Origin: Bacteroidaceae bacterium
GTDB taxonomy: Bacteria; Bacteroidota; Bacteroidia; Bacteroidales; Bacteroidaceae
Direction of reading: 5' to 3'
Assembly: GCA_045629325.1 (NCBI GenBank)
Contig: JAZQQX010000027.1
Span: forward strand, 11,049-75,048
DNA: 64,000 nucleotides
This document shows, piece by piece, positions 492-57,428 of this stretch; position 1 is the first letter of the stretch; each line of letters opens with the position of its first letter. The translations under genes and the position numbers were made by a program. The notes beneath the pieces are model-generated. The model was not told where the DNA came from. It searched no databases and was given only the letters and a program-made list of their open reading frames with translations.

Positions 492-3311
492 ATGAAAGAG
501 ATATTGAAAGATAGGATCCTCTTGCTCGATGGAGCAATGGGAACAATGATACAGACTTTCCACTTGCGTGAAGAAGATTTCCGTGGTGATCGTTTCAAGG
601 ATCTTCCCGGTTTGCAAAGTGGCAACAACGACCTGCTGGTGCTCACCCGTCCCGATGTGATAGGGGAGATTCATCGTCGTTACTTGGAGGCAGGAGCGGA
701 TATTATCACGGCTTGTACCTTCAACAGCCAGCGTATATCGATGGCCGATTACGGTTGTGAACATCTCATCCGTGAGATCAATCAGACTGCGGTACGCCTG
801 GCCCGTGCAGAAGCAGAACGCTTCTCTACGCCCGAGAAACCCCGCTTTGTGATAGCCACGGTGGGCCCGAGCAACAAGACTCTGAGCATGAGTCCGGATG
901 TCAACAACCCGGGTTATCGTGCCCTGACCTTCGACGATATGGTGGAAGCCTATGTGGAACAGATAGAGGCTCTGCTTGAGGCAGGTGTAGATGCTTTGCT
1001 CCTGGAGACTATCTTCGACACACTCAATTGCAAGGCCACCATCTATGCATCTCAGTTGGCCATGAAGCAGACGGGTATCAAGGTTCCGCTGATGCTGAGT
1101 GTCACGGTAAGCGACCGTACGGGTCGTCTCCTGTCTGGTCAGAACCTGCGTGCCTTCCTTGCCAGTATCGCTCATGCAGATGTGATGAGCGTGGGTTTGA
1201 ACTGCTCATTTGGAGGTAAGGATATGTTGCCCTGCGTGAGAGAGATGGCCCAGTATGCCCCTTATTTTATCACAGCCCATCCCAATGCTGGTCTGCCCAA
1301 CCAGATGGGTAAGTACGATGAGACCCCGGAACTGATGCGTGAGCAGATACGAGCCTTCCTTGAGGAAGGATTGGTCAATGTGATCGGCGGTTGTTGCGGT
1401 ACTACCCCTGAGCATATCAAGGCTATGGCGGAGCTACTGGCCCCCCAATCCCCTAAAGAGGGAGACATTCTTTGTAAGGATGCTCAAGAGGAGTCAATGG
1501 TTCAGAATGAAGTAAGGACTTATAAACCCCATGTGCCCGTTGCTCCATCACCCTATATGCAGTTGAGTGGACTTGAGGTACTTGAACTCACGCCTGAGGT
1601 GGGTTTCGTCAATGTGGGAGAGCGATGCAATGTGGCAGGTAGCCGTAAGTTCTTGAGACTTATCAAGGAAGGAAGTTACGAAGAGGCGCTCAGCATTGCC
1701 CGTAAGCAGGTGGAGGATGGCGCATTGGTGATAGATATCAACATGGACGATGGTCTGCTCGATGCAGAGAAGGAGATGACCACCTTCCTCAACCTCATCG
1801 GTAGTGAACCCGATATCTGCCGTGTGCCCATCATGATCGACTCCTCCAAGTGGGATGTGATACGAGCCGGACTGAAATGTGTACAGGGTAAGTGCATCGT
1901 CAACAGTATCTCGCTGAAGGAAGGTGAGGAGAAGTTTGTTGAGCATGCCCGAGAGATCCGTCAGTTTGGTGCTTCTGTTGTTGTGATGGCATTCGATGAA
2001 GAAGGTCAGGCCACCACTTTCGCGCGTCGCTGTGAGGTATGTGCCAGAGCCTATCGTCTGCTTGTTGACGAGGTAGGATTCAACCCCTCCGATATCATTT
2101 TCGACCCCAATGTACTGGCTGTTGCTACAGGTATCCCTGAGCACGATGCCTATGCTTCCGACTTCATACAGACGGTAGGGTGGATCAAGCAGAATCTGCC
2201 CGGGTCGCATGTGAGCGGTGGTGTGAGCAACCTCTCTTTCTCTTTCCGAGGCAACAACTATATCCGCGAGGCTATGCATGCCGTTTTCCTGTATCATGCG
2301 CGTAAGCAAGGCATGGACTTTGGTATTGTCAATCCTTCGGCTAAGGTGATGTATAGTGACATCCCACAGTCGCAACTGGCTGTAATAGAGGATGTGATGC
2401 TCAATCCCTCACAAGAGGCATCTGAACGACTGATCACGCTGGCTGGCGAACTGTTGAGTCAGGAATTGGAAGCAAAGGCTAATGGACAGGTTGGTAATGC
2501 TGAAGGTCAGACGGATGGACCCAAAGAAGAGCGTACGCTGGAGCAACAGATCATGGATAAGTTGCAGAAAGGTATCGTTGAGGGGCTCGAACCACTTCTT
2601 CTCATGGCCATGGAGCGTTATCCTCGTGCTGTGGATATCATTGAGGGACCTCTGATGGCAGGTATGAACCGTGTAGGTCAACTCTTTGGTGAGGGCAAGA
2701 TGTTTTTGCCCCAGGTGGTCAAGACGGCTCGCACCATGAAGCAAGCCGTACAGATTCTACAGCCTTTCATTGAGGCCCAAAAGACTGAAGGAAGTGCCTC
2801 TGCCGGAAAGGTGCTGGTGGCTACAGTAAAGGGGGATGTACACGATATCGGTAAGAATATCGTGGCTGTGGTGATGGCTTGCAACGGATTTGAAATAATT
2901 GACATGGGCGTCATGGTGCCTGCCGAGGAGATAGTCCGCAAGGCACTTGAGGTGAAGCCCGACATCATAGGTTTGAGTGGCCTCATCACTCCCAGTCTGG
3001 AGGAGATGGCACATGTGGTGAGTGAGTTGCGCCGTGCCAATATCCATGTGCCCGTGATGATTGGTGGTGCCACCACGAGTCCTATGCACACAGCCTTGAA
3101 GATTGCTCCTGCCTATGAAGGTCCCGTGATATGGGTGAAAGATGCTTCGCAAAACGCCTTGCTTGCCAACAGGTTCTTGAGTGAAGACTCAAAGGGTGAG
3201 GCTATGCGCGAACTGGAAGAAGAGCAAAATCATCTGCGCGAAGAGTCGGGCGAATCTGCCCCCATCCTCTCTATTGAGGAGGCGCGAAACCGTAAGCCTA
3301 ATCTCTTCTAA
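492..3311 (+). CDS. metH: Cobalamin-dependent methionine synthase (Hcy-binding, pterin-binding, cap and B12-binding modules; no C-terminal AdoMet reactivation domain)
   Basis: 939 aa. N-terminus [12 protein letters not shown] and [11 protein letters not shown] match the homocysteine methyltransferase module. [10 protein letters not shown] is the B12 DxHxxG motif. The ORF ends about 90 aa after it. Confidence 0.93.
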
Positions 3312-5037: not shown

Positions 5038-5150
5038 CATCGCTTTTTGCGTAGGTGCGCGTATAGCGTGTGTGAATTTTAAAGATTCCTACGCAGGATA
5101 TATGTGCTAACAAGTAACAATAACTGATTAAAATTAAAACTAAAAATACA

Positions 5151-23300: not shown

Positions 23301-24611
23301 CTATACTTTCTTGCATCCTACATTATAGCTTCCATCTTCGGTCTTTTCGTATCGTGTCACATAGTCACATTTTGTGCCGTGGAGTCTTATGATCTGGGGT
23401 AGGGTGTATAGGAAGAAGTTGATGGCCCTTTTGTTTTGTTGTAGTCTGGTGGGTGTGATGGCATTACCGTATATATCTGGACTTGTTGTGGGTAGATAGA
23501 TGGTGTCGTTACCTACGGTCATTACATAGTCTGTGGGGCGTGCGGGGAAGGGGGACAGGAGTGTCTCAGTGAACCAATGCAGGGGGTGGCGCATAATGAG
23601 TTCACGATAGTAGGTAGGGAATTTCTGCTGATTCATCTCATGCAGTATGGCCTCCCGTGTAGTATGGCTCTTACATACCGCACAAGCTCCCTTCTTTACC
23701 AAGGTCTCACCCGGATACTTCCTTTTATATTCCTCCACCCTGTGATAGAATGCGATACTTGCTCTCTGCGAAGGATGTATATTAAGGTTAGGCTCCTTCC
23801 CATTGGATATGCCCTGCCCCATAGTCGATGTACCCTGCCCCATAGACGATGTGCCCTGCCCATTAGACGATGTGCCTTGTTTTGTCGATGTAAGGTTTGT
23901 GGTTGTATCGTTGGCATGCTGCATGGCATATTGTCTGCGCCTCTGTTGAAGAAGGGTTCTTGCTTGTATCTTTTGATCGAGCACGGGATTATTGACCCAT
24001 TTTCTATGGCTTTGGCTTGTGAGGAGGAAGTTGCGTATGGTTTGCTTGTTTACTTCTGCATCTTTGAAGAGTGACAGATCTACTTCGATGCATGAGATCT
24101 TCTGTTCCTTAATCTTCTCATATTTCTCAGGTTCCACCTCATGGGTCACTTTGATCTCAATCCATAAACGGCTCACTTCCTGTTCTTTCCCATTTCCATT
24201 TCCATTCCCATTTCCATTTCCATGTTCATTCCCATTCCCATTACTCTTCCTCTTCTTTACCCCCACAATGTCAGGGCGAAGCATGGTGTCCTTATGCCAT
24301 TCCTCCACCTCAATCTTATCAAAGTCCTGCAATCCACCACCATACACACTTCCATACGAAGGAAGCATGATGGCTTTCTCCTCAGCCAGAACCTCTTTCG
24401 CCAACAGATGTAGTTCCGACTCATGCCCAATGTCACATGCCTGATTGCCCGCATGAGCAAAATGTGGATGTACATTCACCCCTCTATTCTTTGCCACAAG
24501 CATCGCACCACATCCCGGACAATAGCATGCACACCTAAGCCCATTCTCCACCTCAAGAATGTGGCATAGCCTGCCCTCGCTATTCAATCCGTATGTCAGT
24601 TTGACATCCAT
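23301..24611 (-). CDS. CoiA-like PD-(D/E)xK nuclease-family protein with low-complexity insertions and an uncharacterised C-terminal half
   Basis: 436 aa. N-terminal CYCPGCGAMLVAKNRG..HPHFAH....C...HESELH resembles the CoiA family. RPDIVG ... IEIKVTH fits a D...ExK nuclease core. Confidence 0.6.
   Translation of the reverse strand: MDVKLTYGLNSEGRLCHILEVENGLRCACYCPGCGAMLVAKNRGVNVHPHFAHAGNQACDIGHESELHLLAKEVLAEEKAIMLPSYGSVYGGGLQDFDKIEVEEWHKDTMLRPDIVGVKKRKSNGNGNEHGNGNGNGNGNGKEQEVSRLWIEIKVTHEVEPEKYEKIKEQKISCIEVDLSLFKDAEVNKQTIRNFLLTSQSHRKWVNNPVLDQKIQARTLLQQRRRQYAMQHANDTTTNLTSTKQGTSSNGQGTSSMGQGTSTMGQGISNGKEPNLNIHPSQRASIAFYHRVEEYKRKYPGETLVKKGACAVCKSHTTREAILHEMNQQKFPTYYRELIMRHPLHWFTETLLSPFPARPTDYVMTVGNDTIYLPTTSPDIYGNAITPTRLQQNKRAINFFLYTLPQIIRLHGTKCDYVTRYEKTEDGSYNVGCKKV
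23812..23880. repeat. In-frame 21-bp tandem repeat (~3.3 copies) inside the CoiA-like gene
   Basis: CCCTGCCCCATAGTCGATGTA / CCCTGCCCCATAGACGATGTG / CCCTGCCCATTAGACGATGTG encode GQGTS(S/T)(N/M) units on the minus strand. Confidence 0.85.
24190..24243. repeat. In-frame hexanucleotide repeat CCATTY x9 (Asn-Gly dipeptide run) inside the CoiA-like gene
   Basis: Read directly. It encodes NGNGNEHGNGNGNGNGNG between the putative D and ExK nuclease motifs. Confidence 0.85.
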
Positions 24612-48890: not shown

Positions 48891-51833
48891 TTATTCAGTC
48901 ATTATGACTCCTTCGCGATGAATACCATCAACCTTGATGTTGAGTGGTTGCTCAAATCGCACATGGCGTACATGTTGAGTTTCATTGATAGCTGCGAGTT
49001 GGTCAAGAATCTCCTGTCGGTATATACCGTCACCGCAGAAAGCATTGATGGTGAAATAAGCAACACCCAAAGAAGTTAGATTCTGGAAGAAATGTGTACC
49101 CTGACTGGGATCAACTTGGAAGTCGTGCAGACCTGCCTCCACAATGACGCGAGCAGCGGAGATGTTTGGCCATTTTACGGGTATGCCCAACCAAGGATCA
49201 CTACTGCCCCAACGGCCCGGACCGATGAGCAGATAACCTCGTCCTTCCTCCATGATCTTTCGGTTGATACGCTCTATCTCCTCTGCAATGGCAGGATTGT
49301 TGGAAGCCAGATAGCCTTCGGTCTTGACATACACCACATCGCATACATCGCTGATGATACCATGACCGATAGCGCTATGTGAGCGGAGTAGGGTGTCTTC
49401 ATCGGGTATGAGCGTGAGGTCTTCATTTAGCATCATGCGGTTGTCCACCATGGGTCGTATCTGCAAGAGATAGAATTCTCCACTTCGGTCCTCATCGAGG
49501 TTGACGGCAAATTCAATCTCAACGGGTCGGCGCATCTCCTCCTCGCCATATTTCAGTATGAGTTGGAGCATCTCTGGCAAAGGGAATACTCCATGCTGAA
49601 GCACTCCGCAGAAGGTGAGCACCTTGCGCCCTCCTTCATATATTCCGTCACGAATCACATTGTCGTATGGATCGAAGGTAGAGGCAATATAGCGCAATGT
49701 GCCGTCCTTCTCGGCCTCTCTTACAGAAAGACGTTTGAGGTTGAAACCGTCGTTCACCTGAAATTCCAGTTGTGATTCATTGAGATCGAGGGCATAGAAG
49801 CGTGTCTGTGTGTCGCGTAGTGCCAGTTCCATCTCACTTGTCTGCAGTACATGATCGGGATGTGCGGGACAGACACGGAGGCTTACTCCTCCATCTACAA
49901 TATATTTACCCAGTCCCAAGGCCAGGTTTACTGTGCCCTCGTCTGCTTTCTCCTCATCGATGGGATAGTAGTTGATGCTTCTTGCCACACCAGAGAAGGT
50001 GGGATAGAAACGGTTGTCATACTGACGGCCTGCTACCTCTTGTAGTATGACGGCCATCTTCTCCTGGTCGATGACATTGGATGTGGCTGTCATATAGTCC
50101 TTGCTCGACTGATAGTAGACACTGGCATAAACCGATTTGATGGCATCCGAGAGTATGCGCAGACGCTCATATTTGTCGTCCAGATAGGGAATCATATAGG
50201 TGGAGTACACACCTGCGAATGGCTGGTAGTGCGAGTCTTCAAGAAGCGAAGATGAACGGATGGCAATGGGCGACTTTACTACATCAAGGAACGCCATCAA
50301 GTCTCCAATAAGGCTCTGGGGCAATCGGGCGTGGAGGAAATGACGAAGTATCTCATCGTCGCTCGTATCGCTCAAAGCAATCTGATAGAGTTCGTTGGTG
50401 TCCATAAATTCGTCGAAGACATCCGTACAGAGCACCACCGTCTTCGGTATCATCGTGTACACATTGTCATAACCGTTGAGGTCAGGATGACGCTTGATGA
50501 TGTGGTCGAGGAAGGCCAGACCACGACCTTTGCCTCCCAGACTTCCTTCACCAATTCGTGCAAAGTTACTATAGCGGTCGAAACGCTCACGCTGGAATAC
50601 GGCTACTACACCTTGGTTCCTCATCTTACGATAGGACACGATGGCGTCAAAGATGATCTGTCGGTGTGCATCCACATCCTGCAGAGAGTCCCAAGTGATA
50701 TGCTTCAGGAACTCCGATATGGGGAAGAGTGCTCGGGAGCAGAGCCAGCGCGACACATTGTTGTGCGTGATATGATAGAGCAGTGACTCTCGTGGCAAGG
50801 TGAAGATGTTGTCTTGCAAATCCTTCAGATTCTTGATGCGTGCCACTTCTTCGAGTGTCGTTGGATTGCGGAACACGAAGTCGCCAAATCCGAAGTAACG
50901 GCGCAATATGTCGCGCAAGTCCACATCAATCTTCTTGGAGTTCTTGTCGATGAATCGAGCATGGCATTCCAGGGCCAGTTCTCCCGCATTGCTTTCGCTC
51001 GACTCCAGCACGAGGGGTATGTATCGGTCGCATTCGCGAATGTGAGTAAGCAACTTGTATCCGGCTTGTTCGTCCACCTGTCCTTCACGCGGGAAACGGC
51101 AGTCTGAAATTACGCCCAAGGTGTTTTCTCCATATTGGGTGTAGAGGTCAAGCGCTTCCTCGTAGTTGCGTGCCAACACAATCTTTGGTCTTCCTCGCAT
51201 ACGCAACTGCTCCAATTGCGAGTTGAGGGCTTCGCTGGCAAACGCCAGACTTTGCTGGAGCACAAATCGGTAGAGGTGGGGTAGGATGGAACTGTAGAAG
51301 CGTATGTTGTCTTCCACGAGTAATATCATCTGTACACCGGCCTCCACATCGTGTGCAAGGTTCATCTTGTCCTCTATCAGCTTAATGATGGAGAGCAGGA
51401 GTTCGGTGTTGCCCAACCAACAGAATACATATTCGAAGATAGATAGGTCCTCATGTTCCATTCTGCGGGTAAGACCGTGACTGAAAGGCGTCAGTACTAC
51501 GATGGGCAGTTCTGGATGTGCCTGCTTGATGCCTCGTGCAATGTCAAACACATCATTGTTGTCCGTACCGGGCATACATATAAGAAGGTCGAATTCGCGC
51601 TGCTGCATTACTTCGTCAGCTTCCTCTCTTGAGGCAACCTGCGTGAATCGGGGTGGGAATCGTAGTCCCAATTTGGCATACTCAAAGAATATCTTTTCAT
51701 CGATTCGGCCGTCATCCTCTAGCATAAAAGCATCGTAGGGATTGGCCACGAGCAGTACATTGAATACGCGTCGGGCCATGAGGTCTACAAACGAGGTGTC
51801 GTGTAGCACGAGTCTTTCTTTCTTCTTCTCCAT
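48891..51833 (-). CDS. Response-regulator-like (two REC-like modules) fused to a PEP/pyruvate-binding (PPDK_N ATP-grasp) domain
   Basis: 980 aa. MILLVEDNIRFY...VISDCRFP is a receiver-like module. GEGSLGGKGRGLAFL matches the ATP-grasp of PEP synthase/PPDK. I recognised no swivel His or PEP-utilising C-terminal domain. Confidence 0.7.
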   Translation of the reverse strand: MEKKKERLVLHDTSFVDLMARRVFNVLLVANPYDAFMLEDDGRIDEKIFFEYAKLGLRFPPRFTQVASREEADEVMQQREFDLLICMPGTDNNDVFDIARGIKQAHPELPIVVLTPFSHGLTRRMEHEDLSIFEYVFCWLGNTELLLSIIKLIEDKMNLAHDVEAGVQMILLVEDNIRFYSSILPHLYRFVLQQSLAFASEALNSQLEQLRMRGRPKIVLARNYEEALDLYTQYGENTLGVISDCRFPREGQVDEQAGYKLLTHIRECDRYIPLVLESSESNAGELALECHARFIDKNSKKIDVDLRDILRRYFGFGDFVFRNPTTLEEVARIKNLKDLQDNIFTLPRESLLYHITHNNVSRWLCSRALFPISEFLKHITWDSLQDVDAHRQIIFDAIVSYRKMRNQGVVAVFQRERFDRYSNFARIGEGSLGGKGRGLAFLDHIIKRHPDLNGYDNVYTMIPKTVVLCTDVFDEFMDTNELYQIALSDTSDDEILRHFLHARLPQSLIGDLMAFLDVVKSPIAIRSSSLLEDSHYQPFAGVYSTYMIPYLDDKYERLRILSDAIKSVYASVYYQSSKDYMTATSNVIDQEKMAVILQEVAGRQYDNRFYPTFSGVARSINYYPIDEEKADEGTVNLALGLGKYIVDGGVSLRVCPAHPDHVLQTSEMELALRDTQTRFYALDLNESQLEFQVNDGFNLKRLSVREAEKDGTLRYIASTFDPYDNVIRDGIYEGGRKVLTFCGVLQHGVFPLPEMLQLILKYGEEEMRRPVEIEFAVNLDEDRSGEFYLLQIRPMVDNRMMLNEDLTLIPDEDTLLRSHSAIGHGIISDVCDVVYVKTEGYLASNNPAIAEEIERINRKIMEEGRGYLLIGPGRWGSSDPWLGIPVKWPNISAARVIVEAGLHDFQVDPSQGTHFFQNLTSLGVAYFTINAFCGDGIYRQEILDQLAAINETQHVRHVRFEQPLNIKVDGIHREGVIMTE

Positions 51834-51855
51834 GATTGGTATAAATAATTTGCTT

Positions 51856-51863
51856 CAAAGTTA
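51856..51863 (-). promoter_or_regulatory. -7 box TAACTTTG (minus strand) for the REC-PPDK_N operon
   Basis: The plus strand reads CAAAGTTA, 23 nt upstream of the ATG at 51833. Confidence 0.5.
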
Positions 51864-51957
51864 CAAAGAAAATGCCAAAACTGATGGCTAATTGAAAGAA
51901 AACAACACGATATATGAAAAAAAACGCGAAAATATTGTGGCATTTGCAAATAATTTG

Positions 51958-51965
51958 TAACTTTG
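51958..51965 (+). promoter_or_regulatory. -7 box TAACTTTG for the aromatic amino-acid operon leader
   Basis: Exact TAnnTTTG, 20 nt upstream of the leader ATG at 51985. Confidence 0.55.
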
Positions 51966-51984
51966 CTTCATCAAACGATACAAT

Positions 51985-52077
51985 ATGAAGAGTTATTTCG
52001 GTGCATACTATTATTCCTTTTATTTTTACTTTAGCAATGAAGTGAAGCGGGTCGGTATGTGCGATATAGATATGTAA
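51985..52077 (+). CDS. Tyr/Phe-rich leader peptide (30 aa) of the pheA operon
   Basis: My own translation is MKSYFGAYYYSFYFYFSNEVKRVGMCDIDM followed by a stop. Ten of residues 4-16 are Tyr or Phe. It is not in the ORF track because it is shorter than 60 aa. Confidence 0.6.
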   Translation: MKSYFGAYYYSFYFYFSNEVKRVGMCDIDM

Positions 52078-52105
52078 TTAAGATTTAACAATACGGTCCC
52101 GCTTC
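52044..52105 (+). promoter_or_regulatory. Candidate antiterminator pairing GAAGCGGG (52044-51) with CCCGCTTC (52098-105)
   Basis: An 8-bp perfect complement. The 3' arm overlaps the terminator left arm, so the two structures are mutually exclusive. Confidence 0.5.
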
Positions 52106-52124
52106 AATGAGGCGGGATTTTTTT
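52097..52124 (+). terminator. Attenuator terminator: TCCCGC / GCGGGA stem plus T7
   Basis: Stem 52097-52102 / 52112-52117, a 9-nt loop, and TTTTTTT at 52118-52124. It ends 17 nt before the pheA ATG. Confidence 0.65.
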
Positions 52125-52141
52125 ATGTATATATATTTAGT

Positions 52142-52984
52142 ATGAGTAAAGTTGCCATTCAAGGTATTAAAGGATCTTTCCACGACATCGCTGCTCATCG
52201 CTATTTCGAAGGCGAGGACATAGAGTTGCTTTGTTGTAATACCTTTGAGCAGGTGTTTCAGCACTTAAAGGAAGATAAGGAAGTTGTGGCGTTGGTTGCC
52301 ATTGAGAATACAATTGCGGGTAGCCTCTTGCACAATTATGAATTGCTTCGCGAGTCGGAATCCACCATTGTAGGTGAACACAAACTTCGTATCAGTCACA
52401 GTATCATGTGTCTGCCTGAAGACGATTGGGCAGATCTTCAGGAGGTCAATTCTCATCCTGTTGCTTTGATGCAATGTCGTGATTTTCTTTCCAATCATCC
52501 TGGCATGAAGGTGGTCGAAGTTGCCGACACTGCCGGGGCTGCTGCTGATATCAGTCAGGCCCAACTGCGTGGTCATGCTGCCATTTGTCACAAGGATGCA
52601 GCGAAAATCTATGGCATGAAAGTTCTGCAGGAAGGTATAGAGACCAACAAGCATAATTTCACGCGTTTCCTTGTACTTTCTTCGGAGCAGAATGCAGAGC
52701 ATCTTCGCAGTAGGAATGAGGTCAACAAGGCAAGTCTTGTCTTTAGTCTTCAGCACGAAGAAGGCAGTCTGTCGGCCGTATTAAGTGTACTTTCATTTTA
52801 TAAGTTGAATTTGACAAAGATTCAGTCCCTTCCCATCATCGGTAAGGAGTGGCAGTATTTGTTTTATGTGGATATTGCTTTTGCCGAGAGAGAGCGATTC
52901 GCACAGGGTATCCGTGCTATTGAGCCCTTGACCAAGGAACTGAAAATTTTAGGAGAATATGCAGATGGAAAACAAAGTATTTAA
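52142..52984 (+). CDS. pheA: Prephenate dehydratase
   Basis: 280 aa. IQGIKGSFHDIAA, NFTRFLVL (TRF motif) and a C-terminal ACT-like region are present. Confidence 0.9.
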   Translation: MSKVAIQGIKGSFHDIAAHRYFEGEDIELLCCNTFEQVFQHLKEDKEVVALVAIENTIAGSLLHNYELLRESESTIVGEHKLRISHSIMCLPEDDWADLQEVNSHPVALMQCRDFLSNHPGMKVVEVADTAGAAADISQAQLRGHAAICHKDAAKIYGMKVLQEGIETNKHNFTRFLVLSSEQNAEHLRSRNEVNKASLVFSLQHEEGSLSAVLSVLSFYKLNLTKIQSLPIIGKEWQYLFYVDIAFAERERFAQGIRAIEPLTKELKILGEYADGKQSI

Positions 52985-54140
52985 GCCTGCAGACAGACTC
53001 AGTTCTGTCTCTGAATATTATTTTAGCCGCAAACTCAAGGAGGTGGCTCGCATGAATGCTGAGGGCAAGGATGTAATTTCTCTTGGTATTGGAAGTCCTG
53101 ATATGCCTCCCTCGTTTCAGACCATTCAGACGCTTTGTGAAGAAAGTCAGAAGCCTGACGCTCATGGATATCAGCCTTATGTGGGCATCCCTGAACTGCG
53201 CGAAGGTATGGCTTATTTCTATAAGCGTTGGTATAATGTTGATCTTGATTCCAAAACGGAGATCCAACCTCTCATTGGAAGCAAGGAGGGCATTCTGCAT
53301 GTCACATTGGCATTTGTCAATCCTGGTGAGAAGGTGCTTGTGCCCAATCCTGGTTACCCTACATACACTTCTTTGAGTCGTATCTTGGGTGCTGAGATTA
53401 TCAATTATGACTTGCTTGAGCAGAACAATTGGCAACCTGATTTTGATGCTTTGGAGCAGATGGACCTGTCGGATGTAAAACTGATGTGGACCAACTACCC
53501 CAATATGCCTACTGGTGCACAGGCTACCATTGAACTGTATGAGAAATTGGTTGATTTTGCTCGTCGTCACCACATCATCGTGGTCAATGATAATCCTTAT
53601 AGTCTCATCCTTAATGAACATCCCATCAGTATCCTTCAGGTTGAGGGCGCCAAGGAGTGTTGTATTGAATTCAACTCTATGTCTAAGAGTCAGAACATGC
53701 CGGGCTGGCGTGTTGGTTGGGTTAGTTCCAACGCTCAGTTTGTGGAATGGATATTAAAGGTGAAGAGCAATGTGGATAGTGGTATGTTCCGCCCCTTGCA
53801 ACTGGCTGCTGTCCAGGCTTTCCACAATGATGATGAGTGGCATCGTGACTTCAACCGTGTACTCTATGGTAATCGTCGTCGTTTGGCCGAAGATATCATG
53901 CGTGCATTAGGTTGTACATGGGATCCTCGTCAAGTGGGTATGTTCCTTTGGGGACGCATTCCCGACTCACTCCCCGATGTGGAATCACTTACCGAGAAGG
54001 TACTTCAAGAGGCCCGCGTTTTCATTGTTCCCGGTTTTATCTTTGGAAGCAATGGTAGTCGTTACATTCGTATCAGTCTCTGTGCTACGGAGGAGAAACT
54101 GGCAGAAGCTTTGCGACGAATCGAACAAATAGAAATGTAA
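52959..54140 (+). CDS. Class I/II PLP-dependent aminotransferase (probable aromatic/prephenate aminotransferase)
   Basis: 393 aa. SMSKSQNMPGWRVGW contains the PLP lysine. It overlaps the pheA end by 26 nt. Confidence 0.85.
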   Translation: MQMENKVFKPADRLSSVSEYYFSRKLKEVARMNAEGKDVISLGIGSPDMPPSFQTIQTLCEESQKPDAHGYQPYVGIPELREGMAYFYKRWYNVDLDSKTEIQPLIGSKEGILHVTLAFVNPGEKVLVPNPGYPTYTSLSRILGAEIINYDLLEQNNWQPDFDALEQMDLSDVKLMWTNYPNMPTGAQATIELYEKLVDFARRHHIIVVNDNPYSLILNEHPISILQVEGAKECCIEFNSMSKSQNMPGWRVGWVSSNAQFVEWILKVKSNVDSGMFRPLQLAAVQAFHNDDEWHRDFNRVLYGNRRRLAEDIMRALGCTWDPRQVGMFLWGRIPDSLPDVESLTEKVLQEARVFIVPGFIFGSNGSRYIRISLCATEEKLAEALRRIEQIEM

Positions 54141-56120: not shown

Positions 56121-57428
56121 TTAATCTATCTCTTCGTCAGGTTCATATCCACCCATCTCACGAATAGCATTCTTCAGCATTGTGTGCTGTTCGTAGAGGT
56201 TGTTGACAGGTTCCTCGCCTTGTGTGTAGTTGTGCATGGGTGCTTTTAGGAAGAAGGAGAGGAATCGCTGTATTCCAGATTTTCCAGCACGCATAGCGAG
56301 ATCAGACAACAACACGAGGTCGAGACAAACTGGTGCGGCTAGGATAGAGTCACGGCAAAGGAAGTTGATCTTTACTTGCATGGGATAGCCCATCCATCCA
56401 AAAATATCGATGTTGTCCCATGCCTCTTTTTCATCGTTGCGTGGAGGATAGTAGTTGATACGCACCTTGTGGTAGTAGTCGCCATAAAGGTCTGGCTGAT
56501 CCTCTGCCTTTAATATTGTTTCAAGAGTTGATAGTTTTGATACTTCCTTTGTATGGAAGTTTGCAGGCTCATCAAGTACCAATCCGTCACGGTTGCCAAG
56601 AATATTGGTTGAGAACCACCCTCTAAGTCCGAGGCATCGTGTGCCGATGATGGGGGCAAAACCCGATTTAACCAGTGTCTGACCCGTCTTGAAGTCCTTT
56701 CCACATATAGGAAGACCTGTCTTCTCTGCCATTTCCCACATTGCTGGAATGTCAACTGTAGTATTGGGGGCGCCCATGATGAAGGGGGCGCCTTCAGCCA
56801 GTGCTGCGTATGCATAGCACATGGAAGGGGCTATGTTCTCGCAGTCGTTATTCTTCATTGCCTTAACCAGCGCCTCAAGGCTATTGTGTACCTTGTCGTT
56901 GATGGGAACATAAATCTCTGTAGAGGCGGCCCAGAGCACCACAATACGGTCACAACCATTCTCGGCTTTGAAGTTTCTTATATCGTTCCTTATCTGCTCC
57001 ACCATGTCCCAACGGTCCTTGCAGTCCTTCACATTGGTTCCATCGAGACGCTTTGCGAAATTCTTGTCAAAGGCTGCAGTCATGGGAACAATGGCTTTCA
57101 GTTCTTCCTGTACGGGTATGATGTCCTTGGCTCTCAGTACATCTGCATTGACTGCTGCGTCGAATGCATTTGCAGGATAGATATCCCATGTGCCGAACAC
57201 GATGTCATCGAGCTTTGCCATAGGTACTATCTCGCTATACTTCAGATATTTCTTTTCCTCTCCCTTTCCTATGCGTATCTTGTCATATTGGGTCATGGAG
57301 CCAATAGGTTTGGCAAGACCCTTACGAGCCATCAGCACTCCAGTCATGAATGTTGTGGATACGGCGCCACAACCTACTATCATTACACCGAGTTTGCCTG
57401 TTGCTGGTTTTATATTTGTCTTTTTCAT
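56121..57428 (-). CDS. myo-Inositol-3-phosphate synthase
   Basis: 435 aa. Contains LGVMIVGCGAVSTTFMTG (NAD-binding), APNTTVDIP and SKLSTLETILK. Overall it resembles bacterial/archaeal MIPS. Confidence 0.85.
   Translation of the reverse strand: MKKTNIKPATGKLGVMIVGCGAVSTTFMTGVLMARKGLAKPIGSMTQYDKIRIGKGEEKKYLKYSEIVPMAKLDDIVFGTWDIYPANAFDAAVNADVLRAKDIIPVQEELKAIVPMTAAFDKNFAKRLDGTNVKDCKDRWDMVEQIRNDIRNFKAENGCDRIVVLWAASTEIYVPINDKVHNSLEALVKAMKNNDCENIAPSMCYAYAALAEGAPFIMGAPNTTVDIPAMWEMAEKTGLPICGKDFKTGQTLVKSGFAPIIGTRCLGLRGWFSTNILGNRDGLVLDEPANFHTKEVSKLSTLETILKAEDQPDLYGDYYHKVRINYYPPRNDEKEAWDNIDIFGWMGYPMQVKINFLCRDSILAAPVCLDLVLLSDLAMRAGKSGIQRFLSFFLKAPMHNYTQGEEPVNNLYEQHTMLKNAIREMGGYEPDEEID

Follow-up and report, generated by a model that had tools for sequence, protein, structure and literature searches.

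In the enterobacterial pheL attenuator (Phe_leader, RF01859), a short leader open reading frame (ORF) rich in cognate codons is combined with alternative 1:2, 2:3 and 3:4 helices. The codons of pheL are for Phe only and it controls pheA alone, tyrA of E. coli being under TyrR. Codons are mixed in the E. coli thr leader (Thr and Ile) and ilvGMEDA leader (Ile, Leu and Val), and shortage of any one of the amino acids relieves termination there. Some attenuators in Bacteroidetes/Chlorobi were reportedly covered by Vitreschak and colleagues in FEMS Microbiol Lett in 2004. Here we describe a leader ORF with alternating Phe and Tyr codons, followed by a terminator and a competing antiterminator, in a 64,000-nt stretch of DNA from a Bacteroidaceae bacterium (assembly GCA_045629325.1, contig JAZQQX010000027.1, positions 11,049 to 75,048; hereafter the window). 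Comparative analysis indicates that the element is very probably a ribosome-mediated leader-peptide transcription attenuator of the downstream operon pheA–aminotransferase–DAHPS/CM (3-deoxy-D-arabino-heptulosonate 7-phosphate synthase/chorismate mutase)–tyrA, responding to charged tRNA-Phe and tRNA-Tyr.

Among the leader-type cis-regulatory motifs of aromatic amino-acid operons, Bacteroid-trp (RF01692; Weinberg et al. 2010, PMC2864571) belongs to the Bacteroidetes, and it has been mapped upstream of trpE in Flavobacterium psychrophilum (PMC9723704). A pheA-aspC3 leader was predicted in the same species by Guérin et al. 2021 (ISME Commun, PMC9723704, Table S7 and SI Appendix D9); it has a mapped transcription start site after a TAnnTTTG-type box, shows condition-dependent read-through, in nutrient-poor conditions, is conserved in other Flavobacteriaceae and is not in Rfam (PMC9723704). 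An earlier note on the window, made from its letters alone, knew of no Phe/Tyr leader described for this operon in this phylum. Our literature search found no such leader described in Bacteroides, Prevotella or other Bacteroidales, though an earlier in-silico mention may exist; for the phylum as a whole, the F. psychrophilum leader makes the note's view not quite right. The B. thetaiotaomicron transcriptome paper treats leader-like small ORFs in generic terms only, and its supplements hold no prephenate or chorismate mutase entry; Naville & Gautheret 2010 mention neither Bacteroidetes nor pheA. The comparison with Rfam that the earlier note had proposed likewise yielded no relevant family. The element belongs to no Rfam 15 family, including Phe_leader, Leu/phe leader and Bacteroid-trp. 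With cmscan, the whole window on both strands gave no family at gathering score and no tRNA, riboswitch or known small RNA match, and at E ≤ 10 the interval 51000-53000 gave four chance-level matches only, none of them to Phe_leader RF01859, Leu/phe leader RF01743 or Bacteroid-trp RF01692.

The features of the locus, from the promoter box to the end of the operon, are listed here with the basis of each assignment.

51958-51965, plus strand: Bacteroidetes-type -7 promoter box TAACTTTG (TAnnTTTG); from the sequence
51985-52077, plus strand: leader ORF of 30 codons, MKSYFGAYYYSFYFYFSNEVKRVGMCDIDM followed by the stop; from translation
52006-52032, plus strand: regulatory Tyr/Phe codon run, Y8 to F16; frame-0 aromatic codons
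52018-52032, plus strand: near-invariant core TTT TAY TTT TAC TTT; alignment and core search
52024-52033, plus strand: region 1, the 5' strand of the 1:2 (anti-antiterminator) hairpin, UUUUACUUUA, overlapping the last Phe-Tyr-Phe codons; minimum free energy (MFE) folds
52038-52051, plus strand: region 2, UGAAGUGAAGCGGG; 52038-52047 pair with region 1 and 52043-52051 with region 3 (antiterminator)
52052-52094, plus strand: A-rich spacer of variable length between regions 2 and 3, holding the leader stop at 52075-52077; columns 83-145 of the leader alignment A2, A-rich and poorly conserved
52095-52105, plus strand: region 3, the terminator 5' arm, GGUCCCGCUUC, of which 52098-52106 are common to the antiterminator; terminator scan and covariation
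52109-52119, plus strand: region 4, the terminator 3' arm, GAGGCGGGAUU; covariation and RNAalifold
52118-52124, plus strand: U-tract (T7) of the attenuator terminator; sequence and terminator scan
52142-52984, plus strand: pheA, prephenate dehydratase (PDT), the first structural gene; Pfam PF00800, E = 4.9e-57
52959-54140, plus strand: class I/II aminotransferase (aromatic or aspartate type); Pfam PF00155
54170-55234, plus strand: bifunctional DAHP synthase / chorismate mutase; Pfam PF00793 and PF01817
55237-56028, plus strand: tyrA-like prephenate dehydrogenase (PDH); Pfam PF02153
56052-56089, plus strand: operon-end terminator-like hairpin with a 17-bp stem and T-rich tail; terminator scan

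The leader peptide carries six Tyr and four Phe within residues 4-16, and its ATG lies 19 nt from the TAACTTTG box. Downstream of it, the terminator scan recovered the stem GGTCCCGCTTC-AAT-GAGGCGGGATT (52095-52119; hairpin -16.1 kcal/mol) and the seven T residues that follow it, ending 17 nt before the ATG of pheA at 52142. The octamers GAAGCGGG (52044-52051) and CCCGCTTC (52098-52105) are exactly complementary, and the antiterminator duplex reaches 9 bp once U52043:A52106 is added (-16.8 kcal/mol as a duplex). The earlier note had pointed to the 30-codon ORF with its ten aromatic residues, the -7 box in front of it, the hairpin with T7 before pheA, the perfect complement and the four-gene operon downstream. 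Each was borne out, by translation, by the position of the box, by the terminator scan, by the pairing (now one pair longer) and by Pfam matches for all four genes, respectively. Of all ATG-started ORFs of 8-45 codons in the 64-kb window, both strands included, the leader alone reaches six or more Phe, Tyr or Trp in eight residues, and its 15-mer core TTTTAYTTTTACTTT is not expected in shuffles. A search of the window for the core elsewhere gave only one match, with two mismatches (5131-5145, minus strand), which was rejected as chance-like.

The same arrangement is found in related genomes. We gathered 80 loci from species-representative genomes with the PheA alignment A1 (PheA 65-78% identical), covering Prevotellaceae, Bacteroides, Phocaeicola, Paraprevotella, Alloprevotella and other Bacteroidales; one of them, L061, has no upstream sequence and falls outside the assessable set. 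By its nearest loci, the window itself comes out as Prevotellaceae-like within the Bacteroidales. The element is present in 78 of the 79 assessable loci. In 76 of the 80, pheA is preceded at a distance of 145-250 nt (up to about 400 nt) by an ORF that starts with ATG, is 16-35 codons long and contains a dense F/Y run; L015 has the same element with a GTG start. In L012 the complete element (promoter box, leader and terminator) precedes a methyltransferase gene inserted before pheA, which the attenuator would also control; in this Prevotellaceae metagenome-assembled genome (MAG; L012 positions 1367-1545 and 1564-2481) the inserted gene encodes a class I S-adenosylmethionine-dependent methyltransferase (Pfam Methyltransf_11/25). 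L057 (1016-2488), from a high-GC Prevotellaceae MAG, is the only assessable locus without a leader. Its pheA directly follows a TrpB-like PALP-domain gene, a neighbour that suggests a different operon context. Three closer relatives (PheA 80-85% identity; MAGs or metagenomes) all carry the leader and have the same gene order, including a divergent PPDK_N-like gene, and the order of the aminotransferase after pheA is the same in L081, L083 and L084. Between terminator and pheA, insertions of 85-220 nt with short direct repeats were observed in L052, L067, L076, L002 and L060; examples are, in L052, units of GCCCCC(G)GCCCCCTAAAGGGGG, in L067, units of GAAGAATTGAA and, in L076, two copies of CAGCGGGGATTGYAAATCCCCTTAAA.

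A metagenome scan with a leader-plus-terminator pattern returned 120 loci. In 103 of these, which encode 72 distinct leader peptides, the leader is followed by pheA (46-77% identity), which means that the element is essentially dedicated to the pheA operon. The remaining loci comprise 11 chance matches within coding regions, four truncated loci, L179 and L106. On the metagenome contig L179, a genuine F/Y leader (about 1337-1428, minus strand) and terminator directly adjoin the start of the aminotransferase gene, and pheA does not intervene; on L106, a short contig of low coverage, what comes after the genuine leader is an unrelated ORF of 84 aa.

Across the relatives, the ORF is conserved as a reading frame. 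A start codon is found in 78/78 leaders (ATG in 77, GTG in L015), always in frame with the F/Y run, and 74 of the 78 have TAnnTTTG ahead of that codon at 18-45 nt, as compared with 3% of random 80-nt windows. The leaders are 16-35 aa long, with an N-terminal part that varies in sequence and length. Within the run, Phe, Tyr and Trp account for 94% of codons in frame 0 vs 28% and 12% in the other two frames, with a median of nine aromatic residues per run across leaders. All four Phe and Tyr codons are used (TTT 290, TAC 226, TAT 101, TTC 79), and since TTT, TTC, TAT and TAC interchange, the variation is either synonymous or between Phe and Tyr. The last five codons of the run, TTT TAC TTT TAC TTT, are almost invariant. 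This frame-specific coding signature is confined to the F/Y run. Region 2 (GTGAAGCGGG) is decoded differently by lineage, as VKR(E) in 39 leaders and CEAG in 11, and a stop codon lies on or immediately before it in 27; because, depending on lineage, any of the three frames may be used or the stop may fall there, region 2 is conserved as RNA.

The two competing helices were examined in alignment A2, which holds 77 leader sequences in 187 columns. In the terminator helix 91% of cells are paired, and compensatory changes occur in six of the 11 pairs (among them 147:179, AU36/GC27/GU13; 148:178, UA63/CG10; 149:177, CG72/UA4; and 155:171, UA34/CG14). None of 500 shuffles reached the observed covariation value, and slid registers were 39-54% paired. 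RNAalifold recovered this helix unaided, and nearly all 77 sequences have a T-run after the stem. The antiterminator is paired in 91.6% of cells, as against 35-54% in slid registers, and again 0/500 shuffles reached the observed value; at its pair 74:155, 51 sequences have AU and 21 have GC. Further compensations were seen outside the alignment, in L015 (GCGAG/CTCGC) and L081 (GCGGGU/ACCCGC). Antiterminator and terminator share columns 148-156, and the two helices are therefore mutually exclusive. Column 155 of region 3 covaries with both of its alternative partners (74 and 171), a three-way constraint. The classical attenuation layout with mutually exclusive folds, which the earlier note had read from one sequence and proposed to check upstream of pheA in relatives, has stood up to this comparison. 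It is kept across Prevotellaceae and Bacteroidaceae, with an in-frame F/Y signature and compensatory changes in both helices.

The mechanism that these features suggest is as follows. Transcription would start a few nt after the TAACTTTG box, and a ribosome would initiate at the leader ATG at 51985. When Phe-tRNA or Tyr-tRNA is scarce, the ribosome would stall in the F-Y-F-Y-F block (52018-52032), hiding region 1 (52024-52033) and leaving region 2 free. UGAAGCGGG (52043-52051) could then pair with CCCGCUUCA (52098-52106) once the latter is transcribed, so that no terminator would form and RNA polymerase would read into pheA. When both amino acids are plentiful, the ribosome would run on, and region 2 would be occupied by it or re-captured by region 1 behind it; region 3 would then pair with region 4 (52095-52119), and transcription would stop at the U-tract (52118-52124). 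The alternation of Phe and Tyr codons makes sense because the operon holds the Phe-specific PDT, the Tyr-specific PDH and enzymes common to both branches, and shortage of either amino acid should be enough to stall the ribosome (OR logic). What we infer from the conserved parts is that the ribosome stalls, that the folds compete kinetically, that the 1:2 hairpin has a role and that sensing has two inputs, Phe and Tyr.

Ribosome geometry fits this scheme. A ribosome covers roughly 12 nt on the 3' side of its A site. Counted from the start of the last Phe codon (52030), the antiterminator part of region 2 begins 13-14 nt on, at 52043/52044, just past this cover. A ribosome stalled anywhere in F12-F16 would mask region 1 and leave region 2 free. 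In folds of transcripts cut before region 4, with the footprint masked on the FYFYF codons, the antiterminator formed in 97-99% of the 77 sequences. For the 1:2 hairpin, which in the window joins UUUUACUUUA to UGAAGUGAAG, 85.7% of cells over the 77 sequences are paired, vs 54-57% in slid registers. RNAalifold gave a shorter register for it (columns 56-60 with 72-76), so two registers are possible.

Several observations weigh against the attenuator as just set out. The MFE structure of full-length transcripts is the terminator in 77/77 sequences with no mask, and it stays the terminator in 81-95% of them when the ribosome is masked in. Because the terminator is favoured at equilibrium even with the mask, the switch must be kinetic and co-transcriptional. 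The masked and unmasked folding proposed in the earlier note thus gave the antiterminator on truncated transcripts and failed to give it on most full-length ones; MFE switching on full-length masked RNA was dropped as evidence, since most sequences do not flip, and the truncated-transcript folds and covariation were used. When transcripts were cut before region 4 with no ribosome, the antiterminator still formed in 71% of sequences, so that termination as the default would depend on kinetics or on ribosome occupancy. The 1:2 hairpin shows no covariation in the 77-sequence alignment, because region 1 is invariant, and in isolation it reaches a weak -6.8 kcal/mol; this anti-antiterminator is a plausible candidate that fits the data. 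The window's leader stop (52075-52077) lies 24 nt beyond region 2, and a ribosome at this stop would not cover region 2. The leaders fall into two sub-designs, of which about one third put the terminating ribosome on region 2 and the rest, the window's included, translate through it; for the latter, termination must therefore need occupancy during passage and re-formation of the 1:2 hairpin behind the ribosome. An outer helix in the window's MFE fold (52001-52009/52054-52062) is paired in just 58% of the alignment, in a variable-length region that is unreliable, and we do not claim it. Finally, both here and throughout the Bacteroidales, the data behind the attenuator are comparative and from folding.

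Part of the same evidence could be read in other ways. The terminator/antiterminator switch might be set by a trans-acting factor (an RNA-binding protein like TRAP or PyrR, an uncharged tRNA or a small molecule) that recognises UUUUACUUUUACUUU and GUGAAGCGGG, the ORF being incidental. Its binding site could be the core 15-mer and region 2, in which the nucleotides hardly vary, and a 1:2 hairpin without covariation would be no surprise. However, such a factor leaves it unexplained that all 78 leaders keep a start codon in frame with the F/Y run despite their variable N-terminal length, that upstream of the core the codons vary among TTT, TTC, TAT and TAC yet stay aromatic (94% in frame vs 12-28%), and that the leader codons match the end products of the operon. 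There was also no T-box, riboswitch or other relevant Rfam match, even at E ≤ 10, and we consider this explanation improbable.

It is very improbable that the ORF serves as a functional small hydrophobic or aromatic peptide, or as a TnaC-like arrest peptide sensing free Phe/Tyr in the exit tunnel, with the hairpin a plain terminator. Although FYFYF itself is highly conserved at the peptide level and some leader peptides, such as peTrpL, act in trans, peptide conservation does not extend beyond the aromatic run: the length is 16-35 aa, the N-terminus varies, and the C-terminus is absent or read in differing frames. Moreover, the terminator 5' arm covaries with a segment in or just after the ORF, which would be needless for a plain terminator, and induction by high Phe/Tyr would have the wrong sign for a biosynthetic operon. 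The least probable of the three is that the terminated leader transcript (about 150 nt) acts also or mainly as a trans-acting small RNA, with attenuation secondary. Such a product would be expected to abound in rich conditions, and attenuator-derived small RNAs are known in other phyla, such as rnTrpL in Sinorhizobium; against this, the element is almost exclusively tied to the pheA operon, and attenuation in cis would fully account for the pattern of conservation.

Returning to the ribosome-mediated attenuator, we incline, by a little, to a wider interpretation of its core. The conserved alternating F-Y-F-Y-F block may be sensor and hairpin strand in one, forming a two-input (Phe OR Tyr) attenuator inherited across the Bacteroidales, possibly across the whole phylum by way of the Flavobacterium element. 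This would imply that the lead ribosome and RNA polymerase are tightly coupled, in a phylum largely without Shine-Dalgarno-led initiation.

Prevotella, Bacteroides, Phocaeicola and Paraprevotella dominate in gut and rumen, and, to our knowledge, almost none of their amino-acid regulation has been worked out; the element offers for them a concrete candidate cis-regulator of the synthesis of aromatic amino acids. The alignment of 77 sequences, with its supported terminator and antiterminator, could seed a new Rfam family and improve genome annotation, the leader ORF being missed by gene finders. Conserved ribosome-dependent attenuation would also be indirect evidence for transcription-translation coupling in Bacteroidota, and the element might be of use as a Phe/Tyr-responsive part in Bacteroides engineering. 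Attenuation specialists would find nothing surprising in it.

In the window, the divergent gene beside the leader (48891-51833, minus strand) encodes 980 aa with a PPDK_N domain (phosphoenolpyruvate-utilising, ATP-binding) and has a weak, sub-threshold receiver-like match near its N-terminus; a PPDK_N-like neighbour is kept beside the leader in L081, L082 and probably L084. A myo-inositol-1-phosphate synthase gene (56121-57428, minus strand) is convergent to the end of the aromatic operon. Elsewhere in the window, about nine ATGGRA hexamer repeats (atgggaatgggaatgaacatggaaatggaaatgggaatggaaatggaaatggga) lie at about 24186-24241 on the minus strand, and one frame of them reads MGMGMNMEMEMGMEMEMG.

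Of the described systems, the F. psychrophilum leader is like the present element in phylum, operon head (pheA, then an aminotransferase), TAnnTTTG-type promoter and absence from Rfam. Its short ORF, too, holds a mixed aromatic run (…SFYFYW…), a segment further downstream is complementary to the 5' side of the terminator, and the terminator has the form ATCCCG…CGGGAT with a U-tract. However, its antiterminator pairs with the terminator base and 5' flank (GGGAUUGU with ACAAUCCC) rather than with the whole 5' arm, its run is shorter and contains Trp, and the prediction concerned one species only and drew on no comparative or covariation analysis. The A2 profile matched it weakly in an nhmmer search (11.1 bits, over spacer and terminator only; 500 shuffles gave at most -0.1). 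The Flavobacterium and Bacteroidales elements may have a common ancestor, but they can be aligned only over spacer and terminator and the 2:3 register differs. Bacteroid-trp is also a leader-type cis-regulator of an aromatic amino-acid operon in Bacteroidetes, but its codons are for Trp, it belongs to another operon, and it matches the present element neither in sequence nor in structure. With the E. coli thr and ilvGMEDA leaders the element has in common codons for more than one end product, whereas amino acids and phylum differ, and here the block in which the two codon types strictly alternate doubles as one strand of the competing hairpin. As in the E. coli trp attenuator, the outcome would be set by the order of synthesis and the position of the ribosome. 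Compared with pheL, the mechanism class appears to be the same and the first structural gene has the same function (pheA), whereas here Phe and Tyr codons alternate, the operon adds tyrA, DAHPS/CM and an aminotransferase, and cmscan gave no match to Phe_leader at E ≤ 10. These comparisons lend good support to the view that the element is a real attenuator of a known kind, new for the Bacteroidales in its occurrence and not in its mechanism.

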